Shown: positions 13,139 through 32,778, counted from the first letter of the stretch. The stretch: 64,000 nt of DNA from Methanomicrobiales archaeon HGW-Methanomicrobiales-3 (GCA_002839605.1 PGYK01000003.1:96229-160228); one strand, 5' to 3'. Notes: generated by a model from the sequence alone, not told the origin. Program-made: numbers and translations.

Positions 13139-13243
13139 GGGTAGAAATGGGATGTACAGGGATATAAGGGGTGAGGGGGGTGCAAAGCGGAGCCTGATTC
13201 GATCAGATCTCTTTTAAAAAAAGGTGCCTGACAAAAAAACGGG

Positions 13244-17315: not shown

Positions 17316-17420
17316 TTCGCGAAAATTCGCGTATTTTTCGCTTAATCGCGATTAAAATGCTTAAAATTCCCGCATGAATTTCTTCCTGCGGAATTATGGA
17401 TTCCTATTTAAAGATAAGAA
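17316..17420 (-). promoter_or_regulatory. CRISPR leader (A+T-rich, between the cas4 stop and the first repeat)
   Basis: 105 nt with no ORF, A+T-rich (…TTAAGCATTTTAATCGCGATTAAGCGAAAAATACGCGAATTTTCGCGAA on the minus strand). It directly abuts the newest repeat at 17279-17315. Confidence 0.6.
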
Positions 17421-18014
17421 TCAGGTGCAGATTGTCGCGTAACAACAGTCGATGCACTTATTTTTGTATTTGCCCTTGCTCGGATAAAATCCTTTGTCGA
17501 TGATCTCAAGGATTTCATCAATGATCTCAAGACCCCTCTGAAAATCCTGCTCCGTGAATTCAACAGTCTCGATGTGATGATTACTCCGCGTGAAACAAAT
17601 GAACCCGCGTTTCACATCGCGATGATAATTCTCCCGGATCATGATTGCATGCAGGACAAGCTGGTACTTGTAGGTCTGGAAGATAGTGTCCTTGAATTCG
17701 GCAAACTTATATTCGAACGGCGCTGCGGTCCCGTCATCGAGAAACAGTACTTCATCAACGATCCCTTTAATGTGATTCTGTTTTGATGCGATGAAAACGT
17801 TCATCTCTTTTTTTGTCACTCCCAGTTTCTTCCGCAGATAATCTGGGTTCGTGATCAGTTTCTCTTCATGCACCTCACGCCCTTTCATCACCTTGAATCG
17901 CTTCTCCTGATGCTGAGGTATATCCAGGCAGTGCATGTAATAAATGAAACGGGGACAGAAGAGATACTCCAGCACATCTGAGATCGTGATGATCGTTTCA
18001 GTCTCGTTCGGCAT
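17421..18014 (-). CDS. cas4: CRISPR-associated exonuclease Cas4 (RecB-like, 4-Cys)
   Basis: 197 aa. An N-terminal Cys (YLFCPRFIYY) plus the C-terminal CIDCCYATIC cluster. DEVLFLDDG...EYK is a RecB-nuclease-like motif. Confidence 0.9.
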   Translation of the reverse strand: MPNETETIITISDVLEYLFCPRFIYYMHCLDIPQHQEKRFKVMKGREVHEEKLITNPDYLRKKLGVTKKEMNVFIASKQNHIKGIVDEVLFLDDGTAAPFEYKFAEFKDTIFQTYKYQLVLHAIMIRENYHRDVKRGFICFTRSNHHIETVEFTEQDFQRGLEIIDEILEIIDKGFYPSKGKYKNKCIDCCYATICT

Positions 18015-18016
18015 AA

Positions 18017-18319
18017 TCAGAAGAATTTTGTTAAGAGTTCGTCGCTCACCAGTTTCTTGTCGAAAGCCTGGCCGAGCAGTTTTACTTTCTTAAACGAGGT
18101 GTCATCCATTGGAAACACATACACGGAATCGACTTCCGGATCGATCTCCTGCCCGCATTCCAGCGCCAGTGAATCGCGTTCATTGGAGTTCAGGTTCCCA
18201 AGAAATACGCTCTTCTGAACCCGGTACAGTCCCTTGTTCAGGCAGATCCGGGCCACATGATTCCGTGTTGTCGTTTTTCGAATATCGTAAACCACCCAGA
18301 CCATTGTCATCGTTTTCAC
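18017..18319 (-). CDS. cas2: CRISPR-associated endoribonuclease Cas2
   Basis: 100 aa. VVYDIRKTTTRNHVARICLNKGLYRVQKSVFLG is the typical Cas2 ferredoxin-fold start. It abuts the cas1 stop. Confidence 0.9.
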   Translation of the reverse strand: MKTMTMVWVVYDIRKTTTRNHVARICLNKGLYRVQKSVFLGNLNSNERDSLALECGQEIDPEVDSVYVFPMDDTSFKKVKLLGQAFDKKLVSDELLTKFF

Positions 18320-19288
18320 CTACTTGATCAGTTTGTTTGCGATGGTGTGGCACTCCATCTGGATCGTATTCCGGATCTTCACGTTCCTTCCCCGGTAATC
18401 GATCTCCTTGTCGAGCATCTCGTTGATGGCGCCAATAAGGAAAGCCTTCCCCTCCTTGTTCATGTAGAGGCCGCCGGGAATAGGATCGAAATATTTCTCC
18501 GTGACCTGCCGCTTCATGAAGAGGTTGATTATCGTTTTATCGATGTGAGCCCGGAACAGTTCGATGAGATCGAATACGAATGAACGCTTGTTGTAATTGT
18601 CCGTGTGCAGGAATCCGGCATAGGGATCAAGCCCCGCAATGATGCATGAACGCTCAACCTGTGAGTAGAGGACGCCGTACCCGTAGTTCAGCAGGCAGTT
18701 GAACCCGTCGCGTGCCGGGTCACGGCTCCGGCCTTTGAACTTCCATGCATCGGGCATGGTGCTGTTAATCGCATCGAAATATGCCTGCGAAACCATTCCC
18801 TCAATTCCCATGATCGACCCGCGCTTCTGATCGAGTGTCCCCTTCATATTTTTCAGGGATTCAAGCAGGACTTCCATCCTCGCAATGTACTGTTCCAGCG
18901 TCTCTTTCTGCTCGGGCCGGTTCTTCTTCAGGTCCTTGAGAAGATCGATCTGGCCTTCTATCTTCCGTGAGATCCATTCGCGCGCAAGATAAAATCCGGT
19001 ATCCTCGTTTGCTGCTTCAAGCTGGCGACGGCGGATCAGCGTGGTGCTGCCGAGTTTGGAATGCCACACACGCCCGTACGGGTTGCCGAAGTAATCCAGA
19101 AAAATGATATCGATGTTGTTCTCAACCGCAAATTGGATTGCGTCGGTTGTAATCGTGGCAGATGTAGTGATGAGGATGCTGTCGATCTTGTCTGCGGAAA
19201 CCTCGAAGGTCTTCTCGTCGGTCTTCACGAGAAAACAGTTGTTAGATTTTTTCAGGTAGGAGCCCCGGGTGTTGATGACGAGCTGCAT
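18320..19288 (-). CDS. cas1: CRISPR-associated integrase Cas1
   Basis: ORF 18320-19612, trimmed to ATG 19288 (MQLVINTRGSYLKKSNNCFLV) because the upstream part overlaps cas6 in another frame. Conserved features seen are NCLLNYGYGVLY and GFLH. Confidence 0.9.
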   Translation of the reverse strand: MQLVINTRGSYLKKSNNCFLVKTDEKTFEVSADKIDSILITTSATITTDAIQFAVENNIDIIFLDYFGNPYGRVWHSKLGSTTLIRRRQLEAANEDTGFYLAREWISRKIEGQIDLLKDLKKNRPEQKETLEQYIARMEVLLESLKNMKGTLDQKRGSIMGIEGMVSQAYFDAINSTMPDAWKFKGRSRDPARDGFNCLLNYGYGVLYSQVERSCIIAGLDPYAGFLHTDNYNKRSFVFDLIELFRAHIDKTIINLFMKRQVTEKYFDPIPGGLYMNKEGKAFLIGAINEMLDKEIDYRGRNVKIRNTIQMECHTIANKLIK

Positions 19289-19296
19289 GGACCGCC

Positions 19297-19965
19297 TCAC
19301 TGTGTGTATGTTTTCAGTTGCCGTACCGCCCCGAACCCGCGCGATACTGATTTTCCTATACCAAGCAGATTCGGGATCTGGAAGTTTGCCTGGAATTTCC
19401 CGGTAAATGTCATGACGCTGACATCCTTGAGCCGGTCTTTCCGGAAATGTACCTGCGCATCGCATTTGATCTGGCCCGGCACATCGTAGCCCAGCGATTT
19501 TGACATCGAGATGAGATTGCCGATCAGGATTTTCCGTACGAACTCGTCCCGCTCGGGAGTTCCTTTGAGTGCATAGTATTTCCGGTAATTCTCCTGGTTC
19601 AGCGCGAGCCACGGGGTCACAAACTCGTACGACCGGATCTTCTCTGAGATTCCGAACTCTTCATCTTTCAACGAGATGCCACGTTCGACAATCTGGTACG
19701 TGTCCGTGCCCAGCCGGATTTCCTGGTATTCATCGAAGATCTGTTTGAGAACTTCCGCGCCTTCGTTGATTCCGATCACGGTCGGGACATTATCGATCAT
19801 CTTGTATTGCACGACCGGGTAGCGGTAGATGAACTTGTCCGCGCTGTGCTGGTGAAGCTCCGCGTATTCGTTAAACTTGGTTGCGAAGAATCCGCGAAGC
19901 TGGTGAGCTGAACCGTGAATAGGCCGGGTGGAGCCGAGGGTCAGGGTGAAGGTGTGGAGGATCAT
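19297..19965 (-). CDS. cas6: CRISPR repeat endoribonuclease Cas6
   Basis: 222 aa. The C-terminal glycine-rich loop is LLGIGKSVSRGFGAV. The size and operon context fit Cas6. Confidence 0.8.
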   Translation of the reverse strand: MILHTFTLTLGSTRPIHGSAHQLRGFFATKFNEYAELHQHSADKFIYRYPVVQYKMIDNVPTVIGINEGAEVLKQIFDEYQEIRLGTDTYQIVERGISLKDEEFGISEKIRSYEFVTPWLALNQENYRKYYALKGTPERDEFVRKILIGNLISMSKSLGYDVPGQIKCDAQVHFRKDRLKDVSVMTFTGKFQANFQIPNLLGIGKSVSRGFGAVRQLKTYTQ

Positions 19966-22388
19966 AGGATCACAGTACCCCCATCACACGGTGTGAATCC
20001 TGTTTGAGGATCATACCTGAACTCCAGTTCTTCCTCTGAAATATGACCGATTCCAAGATCCTCCCGGAATAATCTCTGCGCTTTATTTTTAGGAACCGAG
20101 ATGACATAATCGAGAAACTCCCGTTTGATTTTCAAAAACTCATTTTTTCTCTTTGCATAGGGTTTGGATTTTATCTCAACGAACTCTTGCCAGATCTTTT
20201 TGGCATCATCATCGCATTCAATAAAAACATCCAGTTTCGGATAGTCATTCTGGATAAGATGGAATGAATCCTGAAGATCGGAATACTTGAGATAGCGGAT
20301 GAGGTCGAGACATTTTTTAGCGGTGTCATTCGTGTGCAATTCTTCAACAAGCCGGAAGTACTGGTTATTCAATGCAAGAAACTGCTGTTCGCTGATGACA
20401 CTTTTTCCTTCCAGAACAACCCGTGTTTTGTCAAGAAGGAATTGGGAATAAATATAATTGCAGTAGTTCTTCCCATCGGCCTGTAGAGTTACAATTTGCA
20501 CTTCACCACGGGCATCCTGCTGATTGTTACGGTTGCATCGCCCGGCAACCTGGTTGATCGAATCAAGCGGGGCCATGTCACGGTAAACAACATCGACATC
20601 GATATCGACACCTGCTTCAATGAGCTGCGTGCTGACGATTACTTTCCGTTTCTTGGTATGCGAATTGCGGATATTCCTGATTCTCGCCAATCGTTCTTTG
20701 GGAATGATATGAGTGGACAAGAATACGAATTCGGTGTTCGGCTCATTTAAAGAAGATATTAAAGTATAGACCTCTTTGGCAGCGTTTATCGTATTGAGGA
20801 CAATGAGAAAATCTTTCTCCTGTTCGTTATGGATTCTATGCCGAATAGTTTCAATAAATTGTTGAAGGGCACATGGTTCTGGATTGAAGGTAAGATCAAC
20901 ACGGTTGAGTTGGGAAAAGTACGTGTTTTTCTTTAATGCAAGTTCAAAGATTTCACCCGATTTTTCTTCATCAAAGATCAAGGGTTGCGTTGCAGTCACG
21001 AAGATAACTCGTATGTTCAGACATCGGGTGAGTGTTTGAATAACATCGTGGAATAATAGCCAGTATTCATGAGGGATTGACTGGACTTCATCAAGGATGA
21101 CAATTGCATTGGCAAGCGTGTGATATTTCCTTATCGCACGATTCCGGTTTGAAAAGATCGTGTGGAAGAACTGAACGAATGTTGTAATAATGAATTCTGA
21201 ATGCCAACCCTCTATCAGAAGACGGGATGCATCCTCATCATAGTCCTCGTCATCGGTTGAGGTATAGGAAAAATCCGCCAGATGATGGTGTTTGAGTAAA
21301 ATATTCGAAGGGACGGGATCGCCATAGGCAGAGGATAACACCGATGAGATGACATCATAATTCTGGTCGATAATACTCATGAACGGGAGGCAATAGAGAA
21401 TTTGAGGGGATACCCCGGTTTCACGATTAATCCGTTCACGTAATTTCAGAGCAAAGGAGACCGAGGTTAACGTTTTCCCGGTGCCGGTCGGGACATTCAG
21501 AGAAAAAATTTTCTTGTCGAGATCCAGAGTCGGGACACGGGAAATTACTTCATCGTATATTTCATTTCGCAACTGGTTTATAGGAGATGTGGAGCGTGAA
21601 AATCCCTTATTTTCGCGATAGAGATCAACAAGATCTGATCGAAGTGCCTCTTTGTCCCGGTCTGCTGAAATTTCTGCTGCATCCTGTTTATCTCCCGAAA
21701 GCAGGAGGGAATAATAAAACAGTGTAAGTACTTCCATGGAGGGAGCATCCGGGATCTGTTCGAGACGGGGTTTTAATTTGAAAAGTTTACCGTCATTCAC
21801 GATGGAGGAGAGGATTGCATCGGTCTCCAGAAAAAAACCGGTGATGGTTTCTTCAGGAATTAATCCGGCATACACATACTGAAGAGATTGCGTGGAAATG
21901 GATTCGCATTGACGTTTAATGACATCAGTTATTTCTGATTTTCTGATATCCGTGGTCTCATCAAAAAAATTTTTCAGGTCGCCATGATGCCGACGTACCA
22001 GAACATATCCAATAAACGGTAAGAGAGAATCGTTCGCATCAGTTCTGCTTTTGAAAGATTCACGTAAACAGTGGTAGGTGAAAATTGCCGAGATGAGACC
22101 ATGATGAGTCTCTGGTTTCATCTTTAAGGTTGGCCGGTTTTTTTCATCAGAGAAAAGGTAATCCTGGAAGTATTTTGTGGCTTTTCCAAAGTCATGACAT
22201 AATCCCAGGGTTCGGGAAAATACCGACAACAGTTCGTTCGAATAACCCAAGGAGGAAAAATCCGGATTTGCCGAGTTATGGGACACTTCACAATAATCCG
22301 CAACTGCCGTAAGATGATCCCGCAGATTTTTTCCGGGATGGGAAAAAAGATTACATGAAGAGGATTTTGTCATTATTTCCAAGTTCAT
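19962..22388 (-). CDS. cas3: Cas3 nuclease-helicase (HD domain fused to a SF2 helicase)
   Basis: 808 aa. The HD region is HLTAVADYCE...LCHDFGKATKYFQ. The Walker A motif is NVPTGTGKT and the DEAD-like box is LDEVQ. The C-terminal helicase domain contains STQLIEAGVDID. Confidence 0.9.
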   Translation of the reverse strand: MNLEIMTKSSSCNLFSHPGKNLRDHLTAVADYCEVSHNSANPDFSSLGYSNELLSVFSRTLGLCHDFGKATKYFQDYLFSDEKNRPTLKMKPETHHGLISAIFTYHCLRESFKSRTDANDSLLPFIGYVLVRRHHGDLKNFFDETTDIRKSEITDVIKRQCESISTQSLQYVYAGLIPEETITGFFLETDAILSSIVNDGKLFKLKPRLEQIPDAPSMEVLTLFYYSLLLSGDKQDAAEISADRDKEALRSDLVDLYRENKGFSRSTSPINQLRNEIYDEVISRVPTLDLDKKIFSLNVPTGTGKTLTSVSFALKLRERINRETGVSPQILYCLPFMSIIDQNYDVISSVLSSAYGDPVPSNILLKHHHLADFSYTSTDDEDYDEDASRLLIEGWHSEFIITTFVQFFHTIFSNRNRAIRKYHTLANAIVILDEVQSIPHEYWLLFHDVIQTLTRCLNIRVIFVTATQPLIFDEEKSGEIFELALKKNTYFSQLNRVDLTFNPEPCALQQFIETIRHRIHNEQEKDFLIVLNTINAAKEVYTLISSLNEPNTEFVFLSTHIIPKERLARIRNIRNSHTKKRKVIVSTQLIEAGVDIDVDVVYRDMAPLDSINQVAGRCNRNNQQDARGEVQIVTLQADGKNYCNYIYSQFLLDKTRVVLEGKSVISEQQFLALNNQYFRLVEELHTNDTAKKCLDLIRYLKYSDLQDSFHLIQNDYPKLDVFIECDDDAKKIWQEFVEIKSKPYAKRKNEFLKIKREFLDYVISVPKNKAQRLFREDLGIGHISEEELEFRYDPQTGFTPCDGGTVIL

Positions 22389-23055
22389 AAAAATAATTAA
22401 CCCGGGCAGAGATGGGTTTACAGTTCCGCTCGAACATGAACTGCTGATAATCGTTCACCGTCCGGTCTTCAGCCATTTCATTGGGTAATGACTCGGTCAT
22501 ATATTCCATGCCGGATTCGAATTGGATCTGTGATATCTGATCTTTGGGAATGATCGAATCAAGTGAGACGTCGGTTGTTTTCTCAATTTTCTTCAATGGA
22601 TATTCACCAACGTAGCGGAAATTTGCAATATGCTCCGATATTCCCATGCAGGGAGTGTATACGCATTTATGGGCGGAGATCATCTCTCGTGCTGTTGAGT
22701 AGATGTTCGGATCGGAATGCGAGAAATAAATCCGGAATTTTGCATCCTTGAGAAACTCAAATTTGATCCTGGTATGTTGTTTGATGACATTCATCGTTTT
22801 GACAGAATCTGTATCGATCAGGTTCTCAGAGAACCGAACCTTTTTCACAGGATTCATCAACCGGACTGCGAAACTTGCATTTTTCCGTTGAAATTTGGAA
22901 AGGTACGATTCCTTCGAAAATCCGAGAATGGCTCCCATCAATCCGCATAGAGCGGTACGGGGGGGAAGAGAGAAGGTAAGCGGCGAGGTGGTTGTAAAAA
23001 ATTTCCGGAAGTGGGCGTACTCACTCCATACCTCAAACACCAGTACGTTTTCCAT
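22351..23055 (-). CDS. cas5: Cas5 (type I-B)
   Basis: ORF 22351-23088. I prefer ATG 23055 (MENVLVFEVWSEYAHFRKFFTTTSPLTFSLPPRTALCGLMGAILG, the canonical Cas5 N-terminus), which removes the overlap with cas7. 23088 remains a possible start. Confidence 0.85.
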   Translation of the reverse strand: MENVLVFEVWSEYAHFRKFFTTTSPLTFSLPPRTALCGLMGAILGFSKESYLSKFQRKNASFAVRLMNPVKKVRFSENLIDTDSVKTMNVIKQHTRIKFEFLKDAKFRIYFSHSDPNIYSTAREMISAHKCVYTPCMGISEHIANFRYVGEYPLKKIEKTTDVSLDSIIPKDQISQIQFESGMEYMTESLPNEMAEDRTVNDYQQFMFERNCKPISARVNYFYELGNNDKILFM

Positions 23056-23060
23056 GTCGA

Positions 23061-23981
23061 TCAGAAATTGATTTGTTTGGATGGGCACTTTACAGATTTT
23101 AGGGCATCTTCAAGAGTCACGGCTTTTTCCCCAAAGGTGAGACGAAGATGCGGGTCGATGCAATATTCGATATGATCAATCTTTACAGCATTTGCAACAA
23201 ACGCATCGATAAGTGCCGAGATATCCAGAGGAATCTGAGTGATGTCACGGATTTCCTCATCAGACACTTCGGTTTTCCCCTTTTTGATCAGAGCGTCAAG
23301 ATCCCCGATGTGGTAATTCTTTTCTTTATAGGTTACATTAATGAGAAGCCGGGGCATCTGGCCTACCTTGGAGCGGGAGATAAGATTTTTCGTTCCGTTC
23401 CAGAGGCCATCAAGAAGGGAATTTACATCATCGATCGTGAGTGTCGTTGTTTTCGCTGCATTTTCATTGATGATTCCGTAGAATCCGATGAGAGAATAAG
23501 GAAGGACATATTGTTCGGTGAATGTTCCCTGCTTGCTGGTTTTATCTGCTGGCATTACGGTTGTTCCTTTCATAAACGCCATTTTTACACGGTGGAACGA
23601 TCGCCCGATCCGGAACTGGACCGGCCCGGTCATGGTAATAGTCTTTCCTTTAATTGCTGTCGTCGCCCCGAACAAACGGATATCAATACACGATTTCAAA
23701 AGTTCATCCGCATTGGTGATCTTCAGGTCTTTCATCCGGTCTTCCTTGTCCTTCAGATTGCCTTTATCATCCCGTGTACCCCGGATAAAAATCTCCTGAC
23801 CCTTGAAATCATGAAGATAATCTCTTATGGTACGCTTCAACCGAACATCGCTGACAATGTTTTCCATCGTCTCTTCATCGATACGCGGCTTATTCTCATC
23901 TAACGGATCACCGTTTGGATTGATATCCTTCACATCATACAAAAACAATAACTCAACACGGTTAGAAATTACGTCACTCAT
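23061..23981 (-). CDS. cas7: Cas7 backbone subunit (type I-B, Csh2/DevR-like)
   Basis: ORF 23061-24029, trimmed to ATG 23981 (MSDVISNRVELLFLYDVKDINPNGDPLDENKPR). The NPNGDP motif is characteristic of this Cas7 family. Confidence 0.85.
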   Translation of the reverse strand: MSDVISNRVELLFLYDVKDINPNGDPLDENKPRIDEETMENIVSDVRLKRTIRDYLHDFKGQEIFIRGTRDDKGNLKDKEDRMKDLKITNADELLKSCIDIRLFGATTAIKGKTITMTGPVQFRIGRSFHRVKMAFMKGTTVMPADKTSKQGTFTEQYVLPYSLIGFYGIINENAAKTTTLTIDDVNSLLDGLWNGTKNLISRSKVGQMPRLLINVTYKEKNYHIGDLDALIKKGKTEVSDEEIRDITQIPLDISALIDAFVANAVKIDHIEYCIDPHLRLTFGEKAVTLEDALKSVKCPSKQINF

Positions 23982-23982
23982 C

Positions 23983-25869
23983 TTACTCTCCTCCAATATC
24001 CTGTTTTTCAAATGCAAACTGATCGACAAGGTTCATGCCAAGCACGAAATAAAATGCGATTTCATCCTTCGATAATCTCCATTCATTACCTGCCTCTACC
24101 ATGGAGGTGGAAATCAACCGTTCAAGATCGCGGTAATAATTCGCCTTGTACTCTTCAAGCTTGTTCTGGATTTCCGGTAACAGCGACTGGATCCGGTTTT
24201 GATCCAATTTGAGCCCCTGGAGTTTTGTCCTGAAGGGTGTTGCCTTCCGCTCTCGGTACTGGATATTCAGGAGTTTCTGGCAAAGCACCCCTTCAAGGAA
24301 CACGGCACGTTTCGCCGGAATATTGAAGAATGCCGGAAATTCCTGAAAAATTGCATCAGCTTTTTTACATGTTTCAGATGATGCATCAATGGCTATGCTT
24401 TTTGATTGATGTGTCATAGTAGTTCCATCCTGATAATCCCCTAATAATTTGAGTTCATTTAAATAGCTCATAAGAGCTAACCCCCGAAGGGCACTCTCTT
24501 TTGTAGGAAAATTATGAGCAGCCTTTTTCCGGATTTTTCTCGTGATACCGGATAGAATGAACGGGTAACTGATTCGATTCCCGGAAAAAATTCTGCTTAC
24601 GATGTCAAGGAAATAGGTCTTTTCATCCGTGTCATTTTTTTCCTTGCCAAAGAAATGAAAAATACTTTCAAAAGTATATTCAAATGTGCGTTCACCAGTT
24701 TTTTTATTATCCTTGAAAACCGGCACCTGCAATGATCGTAAAATCGGTTTACTATCCACTACATGTTTTGCATCAAATAATTGTTTCAGACGTGATGGAA
24801 AAATGTCTTCGATATACCGCTCGATTTTAAATTCATTATTATTTTCCTGATAAATCAGGATGTTGCACAGGAATGAATTTTCCTTGTCTGAAAGATGACT
24901 GAGAATTTCTTCTTTTGTGTCACTCAACAAGGTTTGATAGTTGTCATTCAGTTTAATCCGGTTGCCTTCGGTCTGGAAAATTTTTAATGTATCGTAAACT
25001 TCAGTGTTTTCACTAAGAAGGGGTTTGGGAATAACGTAATAATCAAACCCATAAAATTTGAAATGCGAGAAATTATTCAGATATTTTTTTCCGTGTTCTA
25101 ATGCAAGGGCGCAATCAAGACAGACTGGATAATTTTTCCACGCGAGACTTTGATCAAATCCCCCGGAGACCATCCCGGGTTTATCAACGGTGTAGAAATT
25201 GTAGGTTGAAACAAACCCGTACACTTCATCTTTTCTTTCTCTGCAAACCGAGCAAACCATTTTCTCCCCGAGGGAGGTTGTATTGTATTTTTGTGAGAGA
25301 GACGCATGAGTTTTTTTGATGAATATCCTCCGGAAAAGATCAATGTCTCCCAAGTAATTACGCTGATTCTTCTCAAGAATTACGATTGTTACAAGAGCTG
25401 ATTCTTTTTTTGTCCGGATACTTGGGAGCAAAGTCTCTATTTGATCTTTGATCTCTGATTCATTTGCCACAAGACAATCATTCAATGATTGGATCTCTCG
25501 TAGATCCTTTTCTTCCAATGAATACGGTAATACGGAGAAATCCTGTCCGAACCAGTTTTTTATTTTATTTGGATAGGTTTTGTTGATATCCGTAACCATC
25601 GCGGTTGGCGTAACATTTGATCCTCTCGGACTACCAAACCGATAGAGATATCGTGAATTCCGTTCTTTTGAATATTCTTCCTCACTTACCCGGATGAAAG
25701 AGATCTGGTTGCCATTTTTTTCTAAATCGATTGTGAGAATGTGTGGTGGTTTTGGAGATCGACCCTGAATATCTTCGCAAAATATTTCGATGAGCCCTTG
25801 AGGATCTCCAGTGTCGATCTGATCTTTTCGAAGTGAGTATTCCCCAATTTCCCGTATCGCTTCAATCAT
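23983..25869 (-). CDS. cas8b: Cas8b large subunit (type I-B, TM1802/Csh1-like)
   Basis: 628 aa and first gene of the operon. Contains Cys pairs CSVCRERKDEVYG and CLDCALALEHG. The position and size fit the I-B large subunit. The family assignment is by recognition only. Confidence 0.75.
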   Translation of the reverse strand: MIEAIREIGEYSLRKDQIDTGDPQGLIEIFCEDIQGRSPKPPHILTIDLEKNGNQISFIRVSEEEYSKERNSRYLYRFGSPRGSNVTPTAMVTDINKTYPNKIKNWFGQDFSVLPYSLEEKDLREIQSLNDCLVANESEIKDQIETLLPSIRTKKESALVTIVILEKNQRNYLGDIDLFRRIFIKKTHASLSQKYNTTSLGEKMVCSVCRERKDEVYGFVSTYNFYTVDKPGMVSGGFDQSLAWKNYPVCLDCALALEHGKKYLNNFSHFKFYGFDYYVIPKPLLSENTEVYDTLKIFQTEGNRIKLNDNYQTLLSDTKEEILSHLSDKENSFLCNILIYQENNNEFKIERYIEDIFPSRLKQLFDAKHVVDSKPILRSLQVPVFKDNKKTGERTFEYTFESIFHFFGKEKNDTDEKTYFLDIVSRIFSGNRISYPFILSGITRKIRKKAAHNFPTKESALRGLALMSYLNELKLLGDYQDGTTMTHQSKSIAIDASSETCKKADAIFQEFPAFFNIPAKRAVFLEGVLCQKLLNIQYRERKATPFRTKLQGLKLDQNRIQSLLPEIQNKLEEYKANYYRDLERLISTSMVEAGNEWRLSKDEIAFYFVLGMNLVDQFAFEKQDIGGE

Positions 25870-26926
25870 CGTATCGGTCCGGTTGTCAGATAAAAATTAT
25901 TTCTTTCACAAATCTATCGCGTTCCATTATCTCTGCACCATTATTCAACAACCATCCATTCACCTCACGCACCATAAACCTGCTGATCTGCGGTGTGAAA
26001 GTGAATGATTCCCCCCGCAACCAAATTCAACGCAAAAGAAGGCTCGCTCAAAATAAATTTCTAAAAAAATCCGCCACTCCAACAAAATTTTTCAAAAAAT
26101 TCGTCCGGGCATTAAACACCTGCACCCCATTCCCTAATTCCCTCCGGGATTTTCTCAAAAAACTTTCAAAGCCCAAAAAAAATTTCAAAATTTCCCCCGA
26201 CCCCGCTCTCCCTCAATCACGCCCCCCTCCCGCAACTCCCTCGCCGTAAACCCACCCCGAAACCCCACTCCCGGAACCACCCTTTTTCGGATAAACCCCA
26301 TTCCCAATCCGGGCCCTGTAAGGGCTCCGTTGTACCACTTTTCCGGAACGGAGCCCTATATGAGCCCGGATTCGGATCCTCCGGCCCCCTGTTTGATCGA
26401 AAACTCCTGGAGGATCCTGCAGGACAGGGGGTCCGGATGAACGGCTGCGACGGTACCCCTATCTCTCCGTCGATACCCGACCCACACGGCAATACCCGCA
26501 ATTCTCCGACGTTGGATGAGGTATATTTCCACTGGAACCCTCCAAAACGGCCGCCATCCCCCTCCGGACAGCCCCTTTTTCCGGACCACCTGAAATAGGG
26601 TCAAAAAAAGGGGGCGTTTAAACGCTGCTATTTTGCAGGTTTAAAACCGCCAGAATTCACTCCGTTTTGAAAAATACGCTCATTTTACAGACTTTTCTAC
26701 GGGCGTGGACATCATTGCCGGTGGAGAAAAAAGTGCCTTTGTCCGTTTGGCAAACGGAGCATTATACGGGCTTTTTAGACTTCAGCCCTCCAAAGGGTCC
26801 CTTGAGAAAATGTCTGCCGTTCCATCAGGACGGGCAGCTCCGCCTGTCTATTTTCTTACATTTTGAAAATTGTTTTACTATTAAACCAAAAACTATAATG
26901 TCTTACAAAACAACAAGTATCTTACC

Positions 26927-27169
26927 ATGGAAGTAGTTACCCTCTCCTCCAAGGGCCAGATCGTCATCCCCGCAAAAGTCCGGAAAAAACTCTCGCTCAA
27001 AGAAGGCGACTCGCTCGTGCTTGTTGAGGAGAACGATGCGATCCGGCTCCAGCCGCTCGTCAACCTTTCAGAACTCTGGGGCGTTGACACGATCAAAGAT
27101 TCCAGAACGGTTCTCAAAGAGTTGCGAAAGGAATGGGACGATTCGCTTGACGAAAAGACTGCTCTTTGA
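26927..27169 (+). CDS. vapB: AbrB/SpoVT-type antitoxin (VapB-like)
   Basis: 80 aa. LSSKGQIVIPAKVRKKLSLKEGDSLVLVEENDAIRLQP is the SpoVT/AbrB looped-hinge-helix signature. It overlaps the downstream PIN gene. Confidence 0.8.
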   Translation: MEVVTLSSKGQIVIPAKVRKKLSLKEGDSLVLVEENDAIRLQPLVNLSELWGVDTIKDSRTVLKELRKEWDDSLDEKTAL

Positions 27170-27542
27170 TACCCACGCCTTCCTCGCGTTCTTCAACCGC
27201 GAAGAAGGATCGGAGAAGATCAAAGAATTTTTTGATGCGGTCCAGAACGGAGAGACTGAGGGTTTCGTTGCGGTGATCACGCTGACCGAGCTCGCGTACA
27301 TCTACACCAGGAATGCCGGTGCAGATGTGGCCCGGCTCCGGGTCATGCAGATCCGGGGCTCGAACCTGAACATCATCCCGCTGATACCAGAGATCGCAGT
27401 TGAAGCCGGCCTGCTCAAGCAGCCGGGTATATCAATTGCCGATGCGATCATCGCGGCATCGGCCAGGTCCGTGGGTGCCGCGGTAGTTACGAATGATCCG
27501 CATTTTTCTGCATTGGGGGTTGAGGTCAACGGGTACAGGTAA
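27147..27542 (+). CDS. vapC: PIN-domain toxin (VapC-like)
   Basis: The acidic residues come in PIN order: LLFDTHAF, LTELAY, IADAIIAASA, VTNDPHF. There is no ATG near the domain start. TTG 27147 is my inferred start, giving a 23-nt overlap with vapB. Confidence 0.7.
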   Translation: MTKRLLFDTHAFLAFFNREEGSEKIKEFFDAVQNGETEGFVAVITLTELAYIYTRNAGADVARLRVMQIRGSNLNIIPLIPEIAVEAGLLKQPGISIADAIIAASARSVGAAVVTNDPHFSALGVEVNGYR

Positions 27543-27639
27543 TATTTTCTTCAGTAATCATTGAGTATTTGGGACAATCACGGGTAAGGCTCAGGAATAC
27601 CGACACCTTCATCCCCAATCCATAATCACCATTCATCCA

Positions 27640-28557
27640 ATGGCAACCGACAACTCCGGGCTCATCATTGTCCTCATCATCTTTGCCGCAGTCATCGGCA
27701 TCTTCGTGTATGCACACCTCAGCAAACGGGTTACCGCGGACAAGAGGAAGGCGCAGATCCGTGCTTTCAAAACTGCGCCGAAGATCGCAAAGGATGCACC
27801 AATCCTTGTGCAGGGGAATGCCGTTGCACCGGACGTCATCCTCCCGTCAACCGGCGAGCATGTGGCATATTACAGCATGTTTGTCCTCAGCAAAGAATCG
27901 AAAATCACCGGCTCACGTTCCAGCACCCGTTTCCGGATCAACGGTATCCCGCTTGGTTCGGACGGGACCCGGATTGAAGGGGTAGAGGGATTCATGTTCC
28001 ATGAGACCAGCGGCGATTTTACCGTCGAAGCTTCGAAAACGCGGTACCTCGTACAGCCATCGGGAGTATTTGCGTATTTCAAGAAAGGGGCAGATCTGGT
28101 GTCCGGTCTTGTTGCGGGCCAGTTTGCGGCAGCCGGCCTTCCCGAATCGTTCTTCCAGGACGCCATGAACATCAGGATCGCCGAGCCGGCGCTTGCCATG
28201 TTCTGCGGGCTCGATGCGCCGATCGTGACCGAACATTCACGGAAGTATTCGGGCTCGCAGGGCCGGATTACAACAACCGGGCGCACCACGTTCTCGGTGG
28301 TCATGGCAAACAGCCGGATCGATTCCCGGGTCCATACCTTCGTGTCCGGGTTCAGTCTCCCGCAGGGAGTTGTGGATCTTATCGAAAAACGGGGAATCGA
28401 ACTTCCGGAAAAAGAAGAGATCCTTGTTGTCGAGACCTTCATCCCGCTCAACCGGGAGGTGTATGTCTTTGGCACCTTTGACGGGAACGGGAACATCGTG
28501 TACGCGGACAGCACATCGCAGCTCTCGGTCTCGTACACGGACCCGGGAGAGGAATGA
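27640..28557 (+). CDS. Hypothetical membrane-anchored protein, GIDE-like (tentative)
   Basis: 305 aa. One N-terminal TM helix (GLIIVLIIFAAVIGIFVYA) is followed by a K/R-rich segment. The beta-rich body (ILVQGNAVAPDVILPSTGEHVAYYSMFV; FMFHETSGDFTVE; ILVVETFIPLNREVYVFGTFDGNGNIV) resembles prokaryotic GIDE-family proteins. The antisense 264-aa ORF is Ser/Arg/Pro-rich. Confidence 0.6.
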   Translation: MATDNSGLIIVLIIFAAVIGIFVYAHLSKRVTADKRKAQIRAFKTAPKIAKDAPILVQGNAVAPDVILPSTGEHVAYYSMFVLSKESKITGSRSSTRFRINGIPLGSDGTRIEGVEGFMFHETSGDFTVEASKTRYLVQPSGVFAYFKKGADLVSGLVAGQFAAAGLPESFFQDAMNIRIAEPALAMFCGLDAPIVTEHSRKYSGSQGRITTTGRTTFSVVMANSRIDSRVHTFVSGFSLPQGVVDLIEKRGIELPEKEEILVVETFIPLNREVYVFGTFDGNGNIVYADSTSQLSVSYTDPGEE

Positions 28558-28697
28558 AGGGATCGATCCTCGCGGCCGGAACCTGCTGCGGCCCGGGCAC
28601 GGGATGCTGCATCCCATCCCCCCGGAAATAAACCACTTTTTCGTCCACCGGGCCCGGCCAGCACCGGTACAGCATCATTTCATAAAGTGTATATCCA

Positions 28698-29627
28698 GTG
28701 GCGGACAGAGCGTTTATTGACGAACAGGAGCGGACGGGCAGAGTTATGGGCGACAACGAAGCCGGGGCGGACTGCAACGCACAGGACTGGTGCGGGATCG
28801 ACTGGACCCGTTGGTTCCCGTTTTCCCTGGAGAGCACGCGGACCGGTGCAATCCCCGATGCCCCCGGCATCTACCGCATCCGGGCTGCCGGCGCACCAAA
28901 CCTGATGTATATCGGCAGGACCGACACATCGCTCCGGAACGTGTTTAACGGGATCCGGCAGAGCACGGCACGAATGCAGATGCCATGGGTTGACCCGTAT
29001 CCCGTTGCCCCCGCCCTCTGGGCCTGGAAGGATGCCAAGGGATTTTCTTTTGAGTTCTCCGCGGTACCGATGGAGGAGTCGGCAACACGGCGGAAGACCG
29101 GGCTCTGCTACCTCCTGTACCGGTACCGGCAGGAAAAGCGCGATTCACCGGCCTGCAACTTCGGGCGGTTCCACAGGAAGTACCGCTGTTCTTCGACCGA
29201 GCGCGAAGGGATCGCCGGGGGGCCCATCGCACCGCAGGATCCGAAAAATCCCGCAGGCGGACCGGCCACCTCGCCCCTCCCCCCCACCGGCTCCCCGGGG
29301 GATGCGAACTGGATGGGCCTTGCATGGTCGCCGAAGCGTGAGCTTTTAGCCCACACCACGACAGCGGTTCCGCAGGCACAGGGCGTATATCTCCTCTTCG
29401 ATGGCGGAGCCGGCCCCCTTCTTGCCGTCCGCACCGCGGAGAACTGTTCGCAGGCCCTGTTCGAGCTGAGTAAAAATCCGCCGGAAGGAAGGACCCTTGC
29501 GTTCATGGTCTGCTGCGAGGCAAAGCCGGTAGCGGGGCACAACCACCGTGAACGCCAGTGCGACCTTGCCGGCCATTTCATCGAGCTCAACCTCGAAGCA
29601 CCGGCCCTGCAGTTCCGGGAAGAATAA
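28698..29627 (+). CDS. Hypothetical protein with tandem GIY-YIG-like domains (first canonical, second degenerate)
   Basis: PGIYRIRAAGAPNLMYIGRTDTSLRNVF fits GIY-X11-YIG-X6-R. A Pro/Gly-rich linker follows, then QGVYLLFDGGAGPLLAVRTAENCSQALF. The ORF track starts at GTG 28698. ATG 28746 is an alternative start, downstream of the TATA-like ATAAAGTGTATAT at 28682-28694. Confidence 0.6.
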   Translation: MADRAFIDEQERTGRVMGDNEAGADCNAQDWCGIDWTRWFPFSLESTRTGAIPDAPGIYRIRAAGAPNLMYIGRTDTSLRNVFNGIRQSTARMQMPWVDPYPVAPALWAWKDAKGFSFEFSAVPMEESATRRKTGLCYLLYRYRQEKRDSPACNFGRFHRKYRCSSTEREGIAGGPIAPQDPKNPAGGPATSPLPPTGSPGDANWMGLAWSPKRELLAHTTTAVPQAQGVYLLFDGGAGPLLAVRTAENCSQALFELSKNPPEGRTLAFMVCCEAKPVAGHNHRERQCDLAGHFIELNLEAPALQFREE

Positions 29628-29687
29628 CCTGTGGTAACCTGCCCTCAACCCAAAACAATATCTGTGGTCGTCGTGCAATGCAGGTAC

Positions 29688-30065
29688 ATGGCAGAAACCA
29701 GGCAGGCCTTTGGATTTTTCGTGATCATCGCAACCCTCATCATCGCCCTCCTTATCGCAGCCGCCCTGCAGCCGCTTGCCGGCAGGTGGGATGCCGTCCT
29801 CTTCGTCACCGCACTCTTCGCGCTCCTGTGGGCAGTCTCATCAAAGCGGGGCTGGACACACCACATCGACCTGCCATTCGTCCGGTCGGATGCGGTGAGC
29901 GACTGGTTCCTCGGGCTCCTTGCCATGGTTGTCGCGCTTGCAGTCTCCTGGTATGCCGGAAATGCCGTGGCAGGGATGTATTCGGACCTTGCCGGGATAT
30001 TCTTCGGGCTGGTCCTCTTTGGCATCATCATGATGGCGGTCTCATCGGTGAAGGAGTGGGAATAG
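29688..30065 (+). CDS. Hypothetical small integral membrane protein (4 predicted TM helices)
   Basis: ORF 29631-30065, trimmed to ATG 29688 (MAETRQAFGFFVIIATLIIALLIAAAL...). Four hydrophobic stretches are separated by short polar loops. Confidence 0.55.
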   Translation: MAETRQAFGFFVIIATLIIALLIAAALQPLAGRWDAVLFVTALFALLWAVSSKRGWTHHIDLPFVRSDAVSDWFLGLLAMVVALAVSWYAGNAVAGMYSDLAGIFFGLVLFGIIMMAVSSVKEWE

Positions 30066-30153
30066 AGCCAGGACTTTTCGATTATCGCCCAATGAGGAAA
30101 CATATTTCTAAAAAATTCTATCCGCTTTGAAAATCGGGTATCTTAATGACACG

Positions 30154-30295
30154 GATGATGGGGGTTGAGACCCCCATACCCCCAATAACGATAAACACCG
30201 CCACTCCCGCGGAGCTTCCTGTGTGGCGGATCAAACGGTTGTAATGGTTATCTGCCGTTTTCTCTTGAACCTGGGTGAACCGGAACGGTATATTT
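30154..30295 (+). repeat. GC-rich double-hairpin intergenic module, copy 2
   Basis: GATGATGGGGGTTGAGACCCCCATACCCCC...GGCGGATCAAACGGTTGTAATGGTTATCTGCCGTTTTC aligns with 381-520. Confidence 0.8.
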
Positions 30296-30536
30296 CCGTT
30301 CTAACACTGCCGATTTTACTGCATTGGCAATTTCTGCACGAAATAACGGGTCAAGGGTTCGGAGAAATGCACAGACATCACTATCTGTGTGGGGAAATCG
30401 GTGGGACTCTTCATCACCCGCGTTGGTGCCGGATGAAAGATTTTTTTTGATATTCTTCATTGTCAGGGAAGTTTTGATCGTACCGGGCAATACAGGTAAC
30501 GGACGGATTTATTGAACAGAGGTGTATGCGATAGCC

Positions 30537-30581
30537 CCGCCGCCTTCCGCGGAGCGCCCCAGGCGGCGGATCAACACGTTG
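30537..30581 (+). repeat. Partial module (HP2 only: CCGCCGCC-N17-GGCGGCGG followed by ATCAACACGTTG)
   Basis: Matches the second hairpin and the following ATCAAgACtGTTG of the copies at 425-470 and 30196-30240. Confidence 0.6.
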
Positions 30582-30771
30582 CCACTCAAGCATAACCGGT
30601 AAAACAACACCATCCCAAAGCGCAGGGGGGCCACGGGGGGACAGGCACTGTCCCCCCTGTCACACATCAGCAGCCCCGGCATCTAAAAATAGCCATCTTT
30701 CTTCTTATGGCACACCTTCGCCCCGCACCCCCACACTCATAAAACATTCAACCGCCAACATACTAAGCGAA

Positions 30772-32778
30772 ATGGACGGCATCGACACCTACTTCCCCTA
30801 CAGCGAATACCGCCCGGGCCAGCGCCACATGCTCGAAGTCGCGGCAACGGTAGCCCGCGAGGGCGGTATCGCCATGATCGATGCCCCGACCGGCTCCGGG
30901 AAGTCGAGCGTTGTTGCCTCGCTCCTTGCGGAGCGAAAGAAAAAGAAGATCGTGATCGCAGTCCGGACCGTCAGCCAGCTCACCACATTCATCCGCGAAC
31001 TCGAACTCGTCAAGAGAAAGCAGCCGCAGATCAAGACCGTGTACCTTGTGGGCAAGAAGAGCATGTGCCCGCTTGGCGGCGAAGGGGACATCTACCGGAG
31101 GTGCGAAGGGGTCAAGGCCTTCTCGAACTCCCTCATGCGTGACCGGGCCGACAAGGGAGCGCTGACTCCTGCAAAAGACCCGTTCATCATCCAGCAGATC
31201 CGCCGGCAGGACAAGGAGCACCCGATGCTCTGCCCGTATTACATCGCGAGCAAGATGTTCGTGCCCGGCGAATCGATGGGGGTCAAGATGGTCCCTTCGA
31301 CTGCGCTGCGGAACAAGGCAGACCGGATCATCGCAAATCCTGTCCCGCCCCGGGAACTGAACGAGTTCTGCGGCGAGATCTGCCCGTACGAACTCATGAT
31401 GCAGGCAGCCCGGAACACGGACGTGGTCATCCTCAACTACCACCACCTCTTCAACCGGGACATCCGCGAGCAGCTCTATGCCAACCTTGGCGTAGAACCG
31501 CAGGACGTCCTCCTCCTCATCGACGAGGCGCACAACTGCGGCGATGTCATCACCGGCATCGAGAGCGTGTCCTTGGAAGAGCGGGACCTTGAACAGGCAT
31601 CCCGCGAACTGGCGGGCATGGCCCGGCGCCACAAGGGGGCAGAAGCCGTCCGGCACGTGCTCCCCCGGCTCACCGAGTTCATCCACGGGCTTGCGAATTC
31701 CCAGGAGGCAGAGGACTGGTTCGATCCCGCCATCTTCGGGCGGATGATCCTGCGTGAATCGCTCTACAAGGAGATGGACGAGATCGTGGACGACCTTATG
31801 GGGCTTGCCGAGACCATGCGGGAGAAGAACATCAAGGGCGGGGATTTCCGCGAGACTGCCATCGAGCGACTGACAACCTTCATGGTCCGGCTCTCCCACT
31901 CCGCTACCGACCCGGCGTTCCTCACGGTCTACCACCGGGACGAGAGCGGGACGGCGCTTGAGGTCCGGAACATCGATCCTGCCGCGTCCCTCTCGGAAGT
32001 CTGCGGCTCACACGGCTGCTGCATCCTCATCTCGGGCACCCTCTCACCCGTGGAGAGTTTCCGGAAATTCTATTTCGGCAAAGCTGCCGTGACCACGCTT
32101 GTCCTCCCGAATGCCTTCCCACGGGAGAACCGGATCGTTGCCTGCGCAAACGACATCACCACCGCGTTCTCCATGCGGCAGAACAAGGACAATACCAGCC
32201 GGATCGTGGAGTATATCCGTGCGTTCGCGGGACTCAAAGGCAACCGGGCCATCTACTTCCCGAGTTACCAGATCCTCGAGACCTACGCGAACCTCGCGAC
32301 ATCGCATATCCGCAACAGGAAGATCTTCATCGAGCCCCGGGACGCTGCCGATGCCAGCGCAGCCCTCACCCATTTCCTCTCGCTGCCCTCCCGCGGCGAG
32401 TCCGGCGTCATGTTCGCGGTCTGCGGCGGGAAGTGGAGCGAGGGGCTCGATTACCGGGGCGAGATGCTGAACGGGGCAATGGTCGTGGGGCTCCCGCTCG
32501 CCCCCTTCAACCGGGTCCGGAAGATGATGATCGAGTATTTCCGGATGAAGTTCGGGCCTGAGGGCGAGTTCCTCTGCTACACGCTGCCGGCCATCAACAA
32601 GTCCTTACAGGCGCTCGGCCGGGTTTTGCGGACGCCCGAGGACCGGGGCGTGCTCGTCCTTGCCGAGAAACGCTTCCTGGAACGACGCGTCCGCGAAGGC
32701 CTCCCGCCCTGGATCCAGCAGGAGATGATCGAGTGCGATGCTGATACGTTCCGCGAGGTTGTCGCACAATGGAAGTGA
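30772..32778 (+). CDS. xpd: XPD/Rad3-family (DinG-like) Fe-S DNA helicase
   Basis: 668 aa. Walker A is DAPTGSGKS and the DEAH-type box is IDEAHN. Four Cys lie between motifs Ia and II (MCPLGG, RRCEG, LCPYY, CGEICPYE), as in the XPD 4Fe-4S domain. The C-terminal motifs are GKWSEGLDY and ALGRVLRTPED. Confidence 0.85.
   Translation: MDGIDTYFPYSEYRPGQRHMLEVAATVAREGGIAMIDAPTGSGKSSVVASLLAERKKKKIVIAVRTVSQLTTFIRELELVKRKQPQIKTVYLVGKKSMCPLGGEGDIYRRCEGVKAFSNSLMRDRADKGALTPAKDPFIIQQIRRQDKEHPMLCPYYIASKMFVPGESMGVKMVPSTALRNKADRIIANPVPPRELNEFCGEICPYELMMQAARNTDVVILNYHHLFNRDIREQLYANLGVEPQDVLLLIDEAHNCGDVITGIESVSLEERDLEQASRELAGMARRHKGAEAVRHVLPRLTEFIHGLANSQEAEDWFDPAIFGRMILRESLYKEMDEIVDDLMGLAETMREKNIKGGDFRETAIERLTTFMVRLSHSATDPAFLTVYHRDESGTALEVRNIDPAASLSEVCGSHGCCILISGTLSPVESFRKFYFGKAAVTTLVLPNAFPRENRIVACANDITTAFSMRQNKDNTSRIVEYIRAFAGLKGNRAIYFPSYQILETYANLATSHIRNRKIFIEPRDAADASAALTHFLSLPSRGESGVMFAVCGGKWSEGLDYRGEMLNGAMVVGLPLAPFNRVRKMMIEYFRMKFGPEGEFLCYTLPAINKSLQALGRVLRTPEDRGVLVLAEKRFLERRVREGLPPWIQQEMIECDADTFREVVAQWK

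Follow-up and report, generated by a model that had tools for sequence, protein, structure and literature searches.

A Variable Slot in the Methanoregula-Type Chromosome Holds a Predicted Tandem GIY-YIG Nuclease Gene between Two Membrane-Protein Genes

Introduction

Do three adjacent genes beside a CRISPR-Cas locus form a defence system, or do they share only a position? This question is raised by a stretch of 64,000 nucleotides (nt) from Methanomicrobiales archaeon HGW-Methanomicrobiales-3 (GCA_002839605.1, PGYK01000003.1:96229-160228), referred to below as the window. In this stretch, three genes, termed a, b, and c, lie on one strand between a VapBC pair with a type I-B CRISPR-Cas locus and an XPD-family helicase gene. 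An initial annotation of the DNA had proposed that they constitute a sensor/effector module consisting of a membrane-anchored protein, a predicted nuclease, and a small membrane protein. In the present study, the comparative context refuted a conserved three-gene system. With a probability of about 0.75, we instead read the region as a variable slot in the Methanoregula backbone that carries three independently transcribed genes, one of which, b, is a stand-alone GIY-YIG gene with a likely role in genome conflict. The three genes are as follows, with lengths in amino acids (aa):

27640-28557, plus strand: gene a, 305 aa; N-terminal transmembrane (TM) helix at about residues 8-27, K/R-rich juxtamembrane helix, beta-rich body with a central helical hairpin
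28746-29627, plus strand: gene b, 293 aa from the probable ATG start; internally duplicated GIY-YIG-fold protein; the longest open reading frame (ORF) begins at GTG 28698 (28698-29627, 309 aa)
29688-30065, plus strand: gene c, 125 aa; four hydrophobic segments, lineage-specific

Results

Co-Localisation of the Three Genes

We located a, b, and c by tblastn and hidden Markov model (HMM) searches in 78 loci selected for b, with one genome per species, and in 33 loci selected for a from metagenomes. It was observed that a adjoined b in only 3 of the 78 b-selected loci (L001-L003), which belonged to the three closest relatives (b identity of at least 70%). In the other 75, a was never found within 10 kb of b, and c was present in 2 of the 78. 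Of the a-selected loci, 14 extended for 1.5 kb or more downstream of a; b was found in none of these and c in three. Clustering of the neighbouring genes yielded no recurrent partner of b; the top cluster, PAS sensor kinases, occurred at 12 of 72 loci.

The order a-b-c was found in the window, L112, L116-L120, L002, and L003, and other relatives showed other contents of the slot between a and c. In L001, b followed a and c was missing. L079 and L098 had a and c separated by a spacer of 103-123 nt without b, even though the a protein of L079 was 80% identical to that of the window. A gene for a TPR protein replaced b in L080 and L113, and c in these loci was nevertheless 85-86% identical to the window c. 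Because a and b co-localised in 3 of 78 and 0 of 14 loci and the contents of the slot varied, the proposal that a, b, and c form a conserved three-gene system is refuted. The initial annotation had itself named co-localisation in other genomes as a test of its module, and the module failed that test. The TPR-repeat protein of the slot has 409-435 aa and is secreted or membrane-bound (L080 10984-12291; L113 1686-2915).

Sequence divergence within the slot was uneven. The synonymous divergence (dS) of b was below that of the flanking a in comparisons with L116 (0.106 vs. 0.299) and L001 (0.445 vs. 0.934), and identity was discordant between c and a in the comparison with L080 (85% for c, only 65% for a). 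These values suggest recombination or exchange at the slot, including the transfer of b between lineages, and codon-usage constraint could be an alternative cause of the lower dS of b. The ends of a b insertion could not be defined because the a-b and b-c spacers were too diverged from the a-c spacers of loci without b.

All three ORFs proved to be genuine genes, as had been annotated. Public data contained 132 homologue clusters for a (50-97% identity), 76 for b (38-95%), and 9 for c (78-100%), and one of the c clusters had the same sequence as a protein of "Methanomicrobiales archaeon HGW-Methanomicrobiales-3". In pairwise comparisons of the window with orthologous loci by the Nei-Gojobori method, the ratio of nonsynonymous to synonymous divergence (dN/dS) was 0.04-0.28 in a, 0.07-0.19 in b, and 0.15-0.60 in c. 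Since homologues exist and these ratios show purifying selection, a, b, and c are real protein-coding genes. Scans with Pfam, NCBIfam, PADLOC, and PHROGs returned nothing significant for the three window proteins. In PADLOC-DB v2, which covers known and candidate defence families, all three lacked a match at E <= 1; the absence of a defence-system call had been anticipated in the initial annotation.

Fold and Conserved Residues of the b Protein

The b protein consists of two GIY-YIG-type domains joined by a linker (residue numbers follow the 309-aa ORF):

28773-29147, plus strand: b domain 1, residues 26-150; W-x-x-[IL]-x-W-[TS] lead-in and GIY-YIG domain with the full catalytic set
29148-29330, plus strand: b linker, residues 151-211; low-confidence or disordered in the model
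29331-29624, plus strand: b domain 2, residues 212-309; second GIY-YIG-like domain, degenerate in the window lineage

The predicted elements were all present, namely PGIYRIR...LMYIGRT...LR at residues 56-80, a P/G-rich linker, and a degenerate second copy. An AlphaFold2 (AF2) model built with 34 homologues had a pLDDT of 85 and a pTM of 0.84 and showed two domains of the order strand-strand-helix-helix-strand-helix. In a Foldseek search against the Protein Data Bank (PDB), the model matched the GIY-YIG domain of UvrC (1yd6/1yd3; probability 0.94-0.99, target TM-score 0.63-0.68) and the N-terminal GIY-YIG domain of AtGRXS16 (2lwf). Much weaker matches were obtained with PD-T4-3/CMoRE and Hpy188I (probability 0.12-0.38, E 0.6-1.5). 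Several of the structure matches in a viral library were annotated as GIY-YIG, homing, or intron-associated endonucleases.

The catalytic set of domain 1 comprises G57-I-Y59, Y71-I-G73, R80, R87, and E119, with the two motifs on strands 57-63 and 69-75. These positions were conserved among the 34 homologues compared: G57 in 34, Y59 in 32, Y71 in 30, I72 in 34, G73 in 33, R87 in 31, and E119 in 34; position 80 was Arg in 17 and His in 15. The initial annotation had named a lack of conservation at the GIY-YIG positions as grounds for refutation, and these counts do not bear it out. The roles of the Arg and Glu columns are putative and were assigned by position. According to the motifs on neighbouring strands, the conserved Arg and Glu residues, and the fold, with helices on either side of a three-stranded sheet, b is a member of the GIY-YIG superfamily.

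When domain 1 was aligned with domain 2 by hhalign, both the W-x-x-L-x-W-[ST] lead-in and the GIY...IG core were matched (probability 93%, E 2.6e-07); b is internally duplicated, and its halves are homologous. The linker carries the motifs SPxCNFGRFHxxY, NPAGGP, and PLxxxGxPGxxxWMGLxWS, which are kept even in bacterial homologues. In the window clade, domain 2 has LAV for [YAFS]IG, Ala at the Arg position, and QC for EN, and retains G229, Y231, H281, E285, and D289, of which E285 was found in all 34 homologues. Bacterial and haloarchaeal homologues have a textbook second domain (G-[VL]-Y...Y-I-G-[EQ]-[TS]...R). The Pfam family PF01541 did not match the window b at E <= 1; it matched 8 of the 34 homologues, most of them above 22.6 bits and always in domain 2. 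A profile search of the PDB aligned domain 2 weakly with UvrC (E 0.035), and DUF7508 was weakly matched by 7 of the 34 homologues. Our literature search found no publication on tandem GIY-YIG proteins or DUF7508. In its architecture, the b family is a new form within a well-known nuclease superfamily.

Distribution, Copies, and Partners of b

Members of the b family were found in archaea (many Methanoregulaceae, Methanosphaerula, Methanocalculus, Methanofollis, and Methanomassiliicoccaceae), in bacteria (Dictyobacter of the Ktedonobacteria, Inhella of the Betaproteobacteria, Bacteroidota, and Poribacteria), and on plasmids of haloarchaea, Salinibacter, and the cyanobacteria Tolypothrix/Microchaete. 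At least nine genomes carried two or more copies, some in tandem. In two Methanomassiliicoccaceae loci with tandem paralogues (L067, L068), one member of each pair has 394-409 aa and a long acidic C-terminal tail that ends in a Lys/Arg-rich stretch. In Dictyobacter vulcani (L073 8258-10818), about 600 aa without a Pfam domain are fused to the N-terminus of the homologue, and domain 2 of the homologue lies in a different frame, which marks a frameshift or a pseudogene.

A pair of b with DUF6884 (PF21818, YaaA-like) was found on three haloarchaeal plasmids, on one Tolypothrix plasmid, and in three methanogen metagenome-assembled genomes (MAGs). The loci are L125 5568-6843, L126 5571-6846, L130 3552-4894, L127 5977-7304, L044, L054, and L057. 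The two ORFs overlap or adjoin, and their order is inverted between archaea and cyanobacteria. The plasmid pairs (L125, L126, L127, and L130) lie beside Hachiman (DUF1837 with a DEAD/DEAH helicase), DUF262-HNH (GmrSD-like), or a NACHT NTPase. It has been reported that DUF6884 has a YaaA-like DNA-binding fold and is predicted to be a base-flipping, DNA-lesion-binding protein (PMC11701544). The pair may represent an unnamed two-gene system; no DUF6884 gene was found in the window.

In two Bacteroidota loci (L059, L062), PDC-M57B (E 1.6e-100, full length) stands directly upstream of the b homologue. The PDC-M57B protein of L062 (9374-10009) has 211 aa, and the match places the Bacteroidota b homologue within or beside a candidate defence locus. 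PDC-S14 was matched by 10 of the 34 b homologues, at E values down to 3.9e-07, and not by the window b. Membership of b in PDC-S14, UzuA, or HEase was considered and rejected, as only the GIY-YIG core of about 35 residues aligned (positions 62-97 of 301 in PDC-S14). The b protein belongs to no named defence system.

Promoter-Like Boxes and the Start of b

The homologues of b have about 294 aa and begin with MGDNE or MAEQ. Since this length and this N-terminus fit ATG 28746, the true start of b is most likely at this codon and not at GTG 28698. A conserved box was found upstream of b and another upstream of c:

28676-28698, plus strand: promoter-like box CATTTCATAAAGTGTATATCCAG, 48-70 nt upstream of the b start codon, containing a TATA-like motif
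29657-29667, plus strand: promoter-like box AATATCTGTGG, consensus TTATC[TA]GG, 21-31 nt upstream of the c start codon

The core of the first box, CATTTCATAA[AC][GCA]TGTAT, is conserved 5' of b in the window, L112, L116-L120, L001, L002, and L003, and it persists in L003, whose a-b spacer is otherwise unrelated. Seven loci of a paralogous clade (L028, L033, L034, L037, L039, L061, and L066) have a similar [CG]ATAAAGA box that is equally distant from the start codon. The TATA-like sequence at 28682-28694 that had been noted upstream of b does fall within the conserved box, but its distance to the likely start is 52-64 nt and not 4 nt. The c box was found in the window, L112, L116, L002, L003, L079, and L098, regardless of whether c is preceded by a, b, or a TPR gene. 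Because each gene has its own conserved upstream box, b and c are probably separate transcription units.

A different element was observed in a b paralogue clade of about 40% identity. It is C-rich, 45-48 nt long, roughly ccCCnCCAccCTTATcCnnnccCCCGCCCaATnCnTnAtnAcnnATG, and lies directly 5' of the start codon (-48 to -1). The loci include L010, L019, L021, L017, L047, L028, L029, L060, L061, and L066, as well as L033, L037, L032, L055, L027, L035, L011, L016, and others. These paralogues occupy many unrelated genomic positions and have no related DNA farther 5' of the element. A strict sub-motif of the element occurred 10 times in 1.55 Mb of loci, each time in this position directly 5' of a b paralogue. 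The element might serve the family as a specific 5' leader or regulator site.

Properties of a and c

As annotated, the a protein has a single N-terminal hydrophobic helix followed by a K/R-rich stretch (residues 6-45 form a helix in the AF2 model). Its 132 homologue clusters are all Methanoregula-type. A profile search of 1.84 billion representative proteins gave 44 relatives at E <= 0.001, only about 20 of them full length, and these included Micrarchaeota proteins placed among housekeeping genes. In the AF2 model (pLDDT 77), a long helix at the N-terminus is accompanied by two beta-rich modules and a helical hairpin. A Foldseek search of the PDB with this model returned only noise (probability <= 0.13, TM-score about 0.1), and no invariant residues of a catalytic type stood out. 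No recurrent partner of a was found in the distant relatives from Micrarchaeota (L121, L122, and L124). In L121, a is followed by a multi-TM protein of 128 aa without detectable similarity to c. We read a as a vertically inherited, membrane-tethered protein with a body that is predicted to be cytoplasmic and a putative structural or binding role.

The body of a had been likened to GIDE-family proteins, and this assignment was not supported at threshold. None of 30 close members matched Pfam GIDE (PF12483) at E <= 1, and 2 of 10 distant members reached only 15.8 and 13.7 bits over about 40 residues, below the gathering threshold of 23.6 bits. The sub-threshold matches of the distant relatives span an E-x-x-I/L...V-x-V-x-G-T hairpin. 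An hhalign comparison of A3 with human MUL1 gave a probability of 0.25% and an E value of 0.24, at the low power of a single-sequence template; the MUL1 sequence was confirmed by Pfam as GIDE-positive (E 3.8e-24). Profile searches of the PDB were also negative or sub-threshold. The topology differs as well: in human MAPL, the BAM/GIDE domain is bracketed by two transmembrane helices, a topology not established for prokaryotic members (PMC4457424), whereas a has a lone N-terminal hydrophobic helix and none at the C-terminus.

The four hydrophobic segments described for c were recovered from its sequence. In iterated HMM searches, c was found only downstream of a, or of an insert after a, at 15 loci of one Methanoregula sub-clade. 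The protein evolves fast, with identity down to 36%. Its constant position can be ascribed to vertical synteny.

Chromosomal Backbone and the CRISPR-Cas/VapBC Island

The neighbours that had been described were present, with VapB/VapC and then Cas7, Cas8b (TM1802), and a CRISPR array upstream, and the XPD-family helicase downstream:

11801-13171, minus strand: purB, 14.4 kb from a in the window
13458-17316, no strand assigned: CRISPR array of about 54 repeats of 37 nt, repeat GTTTCAATCCTTGTTCTCTTGGATGAATCGCTCGAAG
Up to Cas7 (23061-24029) and Cas8b (TM1802; 23983-25869), minus strand: type I-B cas genes, within the block 13458-25869
26927-27169, plus strand: VapB, MazE/AbrB-type (Pfam PF04014, E 1.9e-12)
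Within ORF 27021-27542, plus strand: VapC, PIN-domain toxin (Pfam PF01850, E 6e-20)
30772-32778, plus strand: XPD/Rad3-family helicase (Pfam DEAD_2, HBB, and Helicase_C_2), the backbone gene that follows a in relatives

In relatives, the backbone order is PAS kinase, purB (minus strand), a (plus strand), and, after the slot, XPD, MGMT, and MobA. The purB gene directly abuts a in 11 related loci, and XPD (cluster k1) lies downstream of a in 12; an MGMT-like gene is also found downstream of XPD in the window. In the window, the CRISPR array lies between purB and a together with the cas genes and VapBC, and the GC content of this interval is 0.39-0.50 compared with about 0.57 in the flanks. These results indicated that CRISPR-Cas I-B and VapBC (13458-27542) form a low-GC block of about 14 kb inserted between purB and a. 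As purB abuts a in relatives and the low-GC block intervenes here, a is a backbone gene that flanks an inserted island, and its defence neighbourhood is specific to this genome. The defence setting claimed for the trio therefore holds in part: b homologues elsewhere do adjoin defence genes, but the defence neighbours of a are an insertion that most relatives lack.

Some relatives carry VapBC alone at the junction of purB and a (cluster k4). In L116 (7326-8747) and L117 (3964-5385), the interval between c and XPD carries a VapBC pair (PIN and VapB antitoxin) and a Yip1-family membrane protein; because these genes sit there, the interval between a and XPD is a second variable hot spot.

Further observations were made in the intergenic DNA. 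A 28-nt motif, CCGCGGAGCnnCCnnnnnGGCGGATCAA, occurs twice between c and XPD (30207-30234 and 30547-30574, 340 nt apart) and was absent from 100 shuffled sequences. Between the same genes lies a small minus-strand ORF (30248-30490, 70-80 aa) without a Pfam match; a counterpart of 70 aa is called as a gene in L112 (2157-2369), and the end of L079 conserves part of the ORF. The segment between cas8b and vapB (25870-26926) is 1 kb long, has no credible ORF, and is C-rich on the plus strand (GC skew -0.27). It contains dyad-symmetric segments at about 26300-26390, and its sole Rfam match was a spurious, sub-threshold miRNA. Neither an RNA gene nor a tRNA integration site was found when 25800-31000 was scanned with Rfam and the whole window was scanned for tRNAs.

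Discussion

Proposed Mechanism of b

From the conserved residues and the model, we infer that b may be a metal-dependent nuclease with its site in domain 1. As an autonomous single-gene unit with its own putative promoter, in a patchy and often multi-copy tandem GIY-YIG family, b would act as a divalent-metal-dependent DNA endonuclease whose active site lies in the N-terminal GIY-YIG domain (Y59, Y71, R80/R87, and E119). Domain 2 would be a built-in pseudo-dimer partner that holds DNA. In many homologues it appears catalytically competent, which would provide two active sites for double-strand cuts; in the window b, where it is degenerate, the protein might nick DNA or need to dimerise. The role of b is most likely in genome conflict, as restriction-like defence or as a selfish, homing-type gene, and not in housekeeping. 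A more specific proposal for the whole family is tentative, and we would sooner expect it to need revision than to stand. It holds that these are undescribed single-chain, pseudo-dimeric GIY-YIG endonucleases that act as lone immune or selfish nucleases in methanogens and haloarchaea, in some lineages with DUF6884 sensing modified or damaged DNA, and that each clade has a conserved promoter or 5' leader of its own.

Alternative Explanations

The weights that we attach to defence, homing, and repair as roles of b are rough and overlapping, and the roles are not exclusive. It is possible, at less than even odds, that b is a stand-alone, restriction-like defence nuclease which, where DUF6884 is present, is guided by this YaaA-like protein to modified or damaged foreign DNA. 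The pairing with a predicted lesion-binding, base-flipping protein on plasmids and in MAGs, in an order inverted between phyla, argues for this role, as do the Hachiman, DUF262-HNH, and NACHT neighbours of these pairs, PDC-M57B upstream of two Bacteroidota copies, and the position of the window b at 1.2 kb from VapBC and near CRISPR-Cas. CMoRE/PD-T4-3 provides a precedent for a single-gene GIY-YIG defence protein (PMC12923530). These points are set against the lack of a family-level PADLOC match, the similarity to PDC-S14, UzuA, and HEase being confined to about 35 residues, against the absence of DUF6884 from the window, and against the Methanoregula neighbourhoods of b, most of which are not defence islands. 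We consider it unlikely that b is instead a free-standing, homing-endonuclease-like selfish gene that spreads between intergenic sites and alleles. Such a gene would be consistent with the patchy spread across domains, the plasmid carriage and multiple or tandem copies, a promoter or leader that travels with b, the presence/absence polymorphism between a and c, the lower dS of b than of a in two comparisons, and the Foldseek matches annotated as homing or intron-associated endonucleases. It is at odds with the lack of any intron or intein association and of NUMOD, HTH, or Zn-finger modules detectable by Pfam, with the stable syntenic position of each b clade across species, and with sustained purifying selection (dN/dS 0.07-0.19); moreover, no pair of empty and filled sites was close enough to define insertion ends.

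A housekeeping repair nuclease of the UvrC or Slx1 type that works with the XPD helicase is a rather improbable reading of b. The closest solved folds do include UvrC N-terminal domains, and XPD lies 1.1 kb downstream with an MGMT-like gene after it. However, XPD follows a with or without b, no b homologue outside the window clade has XPD nearby, and a patchy, multi-copy, plasmid-borne distribution is atypical of core repair genes. We judged it very improbable that the initial module survives in a narrower form, as a lineage-specific system of recent origin in a Methanoregula sub-clade with a as membrane-anchored sensor, b as nuclease effector, and c as membrane partner. The shared strand, the short gaps, and the retention of a-b-c down to 61% identity in a and 70% in b (the window, L112, L116-L120, L002, and L003) speak for it. 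They are outweighed by the co-localisation counts, by the TPR gene that takes the place of b beside a well-conserved c, by the loss of b in L079 and of c in L001, by the separate promoter-like boxes of b and c, and by the status of a as a backbone gene that is set beside housekeeping genes in Micrarchaeota too. A three-gene system at this place would have added an abortive-infection-like architecture to those of archaea; what the evidence points to is positional coincidence at a variable slot.

Several points weigh against our preferred reading of a variable slot with a stand-alone b. R80 is replaced by His in 15 of the 34 homologues, and the nuclease activity of b is a prediction. The separate transcription of b and c is deduced from conserved motifs and is accordingly provisional. 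The order a-b-c has been kept in the window, L112, L116-L120, L002, and L003 to synonymous saturation (dS of about 1.3-1.4 against L003); since it persists that far, the genomic comparison leaves some probability for a lineage-specific functional link of the three genes. Most b neighbours in Methanoregula are ordinary metabolic or signalling genes, and b was not found in IMG/VR viral contigs or GenBank phages, so that a defence or selfish role draws on scattered associations. Several apparently frameshifted b copies came from Nanopore-derived MAGs and may be sequencing errors; b pseudogenes as a sign of decay were down-weighted, as many stem from Nanopore-based "MFD" MAGs, in which frameshifts are common.

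Should b prove to be a nuclease whose second subunit is built in, it would represent a new GIY-YIG architecture and could be a candidate archaeal defence or homing gene. The lasting interest of the locus lies in this tandem GIY-YIG family, which occurs in archaea and bacteria and on plasmids, and which in some lineages recurs as a partner of DUF6884 and has defence-island neighbours. The locus is also a clean example of a hot spot: the junction of purB and a is occupied by CRISPR-Cas and VapBC in the window, by VapBC alone in some other genomes, and by neither in most relatives, and the interval between a and XPD holds b, c, a TPR gene, or VapBC with Yip1.

Comparison with Known Systems

BAM/GIDE proteins (PF12483; PMC4457424) resemble a in having a membrane-adjacent, beta-rich domain and a patchy occurrence in archaea and bacteria; a differs from human MAPL in its one TM helix in place of two, and its 30 close members lack a GIDE match. 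For b, the N-terminal domain of UvrC (1yd6, 1ycz, and 1yd3) shares with domain 1 the fold and the order GIY, YIG, Arg, and a Glu about 40 residues later. Unlike UvrC, b lacks the UvrB-binding, EndoV-like, and HhH domains and has two GIY-YIG-type domains with a conserved P/G-rich linker; UvrC is universal, whereas b is patchy and multi-copy. In homing endonucleases of the I-TevI type, which are intron-resident or are free-standing with an empty allele that can be cleaved, the GIY-YIG domain is tethered to NUMOD, Zn-finger, or HTH modules. The b gene is free-standing and shows presence/absence polymorphism; Pfam found no such DNA-binding domains in it.

Among defence proteins, PDC-S14, a PADLOC candidate derived from "guilt by embedding" (PMC10855318), shares with b the single-gene format, the length of about 300 aa, and the GIY-YIG motif, and the similarity is limited to this motif of about 35 residues. 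CMoRE/PD-T4-3 is a single-gene GIY-YIG type IV restriction enzyme (PMC12923530; PDB 9u7z and 9u75) that works alone and matched b weakly in Foldseek. Its motif is GIYxY-YIG, and its C-terminal domain, which senses 5hmC, has an unrelated fold; in contrast, b has GIYRI without the third Tyr and a GIY-YIG-like C-terminal half. Membership of b in CMoRE/PD-T4-3 was rejected, as the motif and the C-terminal half differ and there was no PADLOC PD-T4-3 match. Hpy188I and Eco29kI each have a cognate methyltransferase and form homodimers from subunits of one domain, and the Foldseek match of Hpy188I to b was weak (probability 0.12-0.16, E about 0.9-1.5, rmsd 14-19 Å). Unlike these enzymes, b is a covalent pseudo-dimer with no linked methyltransferase and with a degenerate domain 2 in the window lineage. 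Hpy188I and Eco29kI make double-strand cuts via two GIY-YIG active sites, and tandem b proteins could do likewise within one chain.

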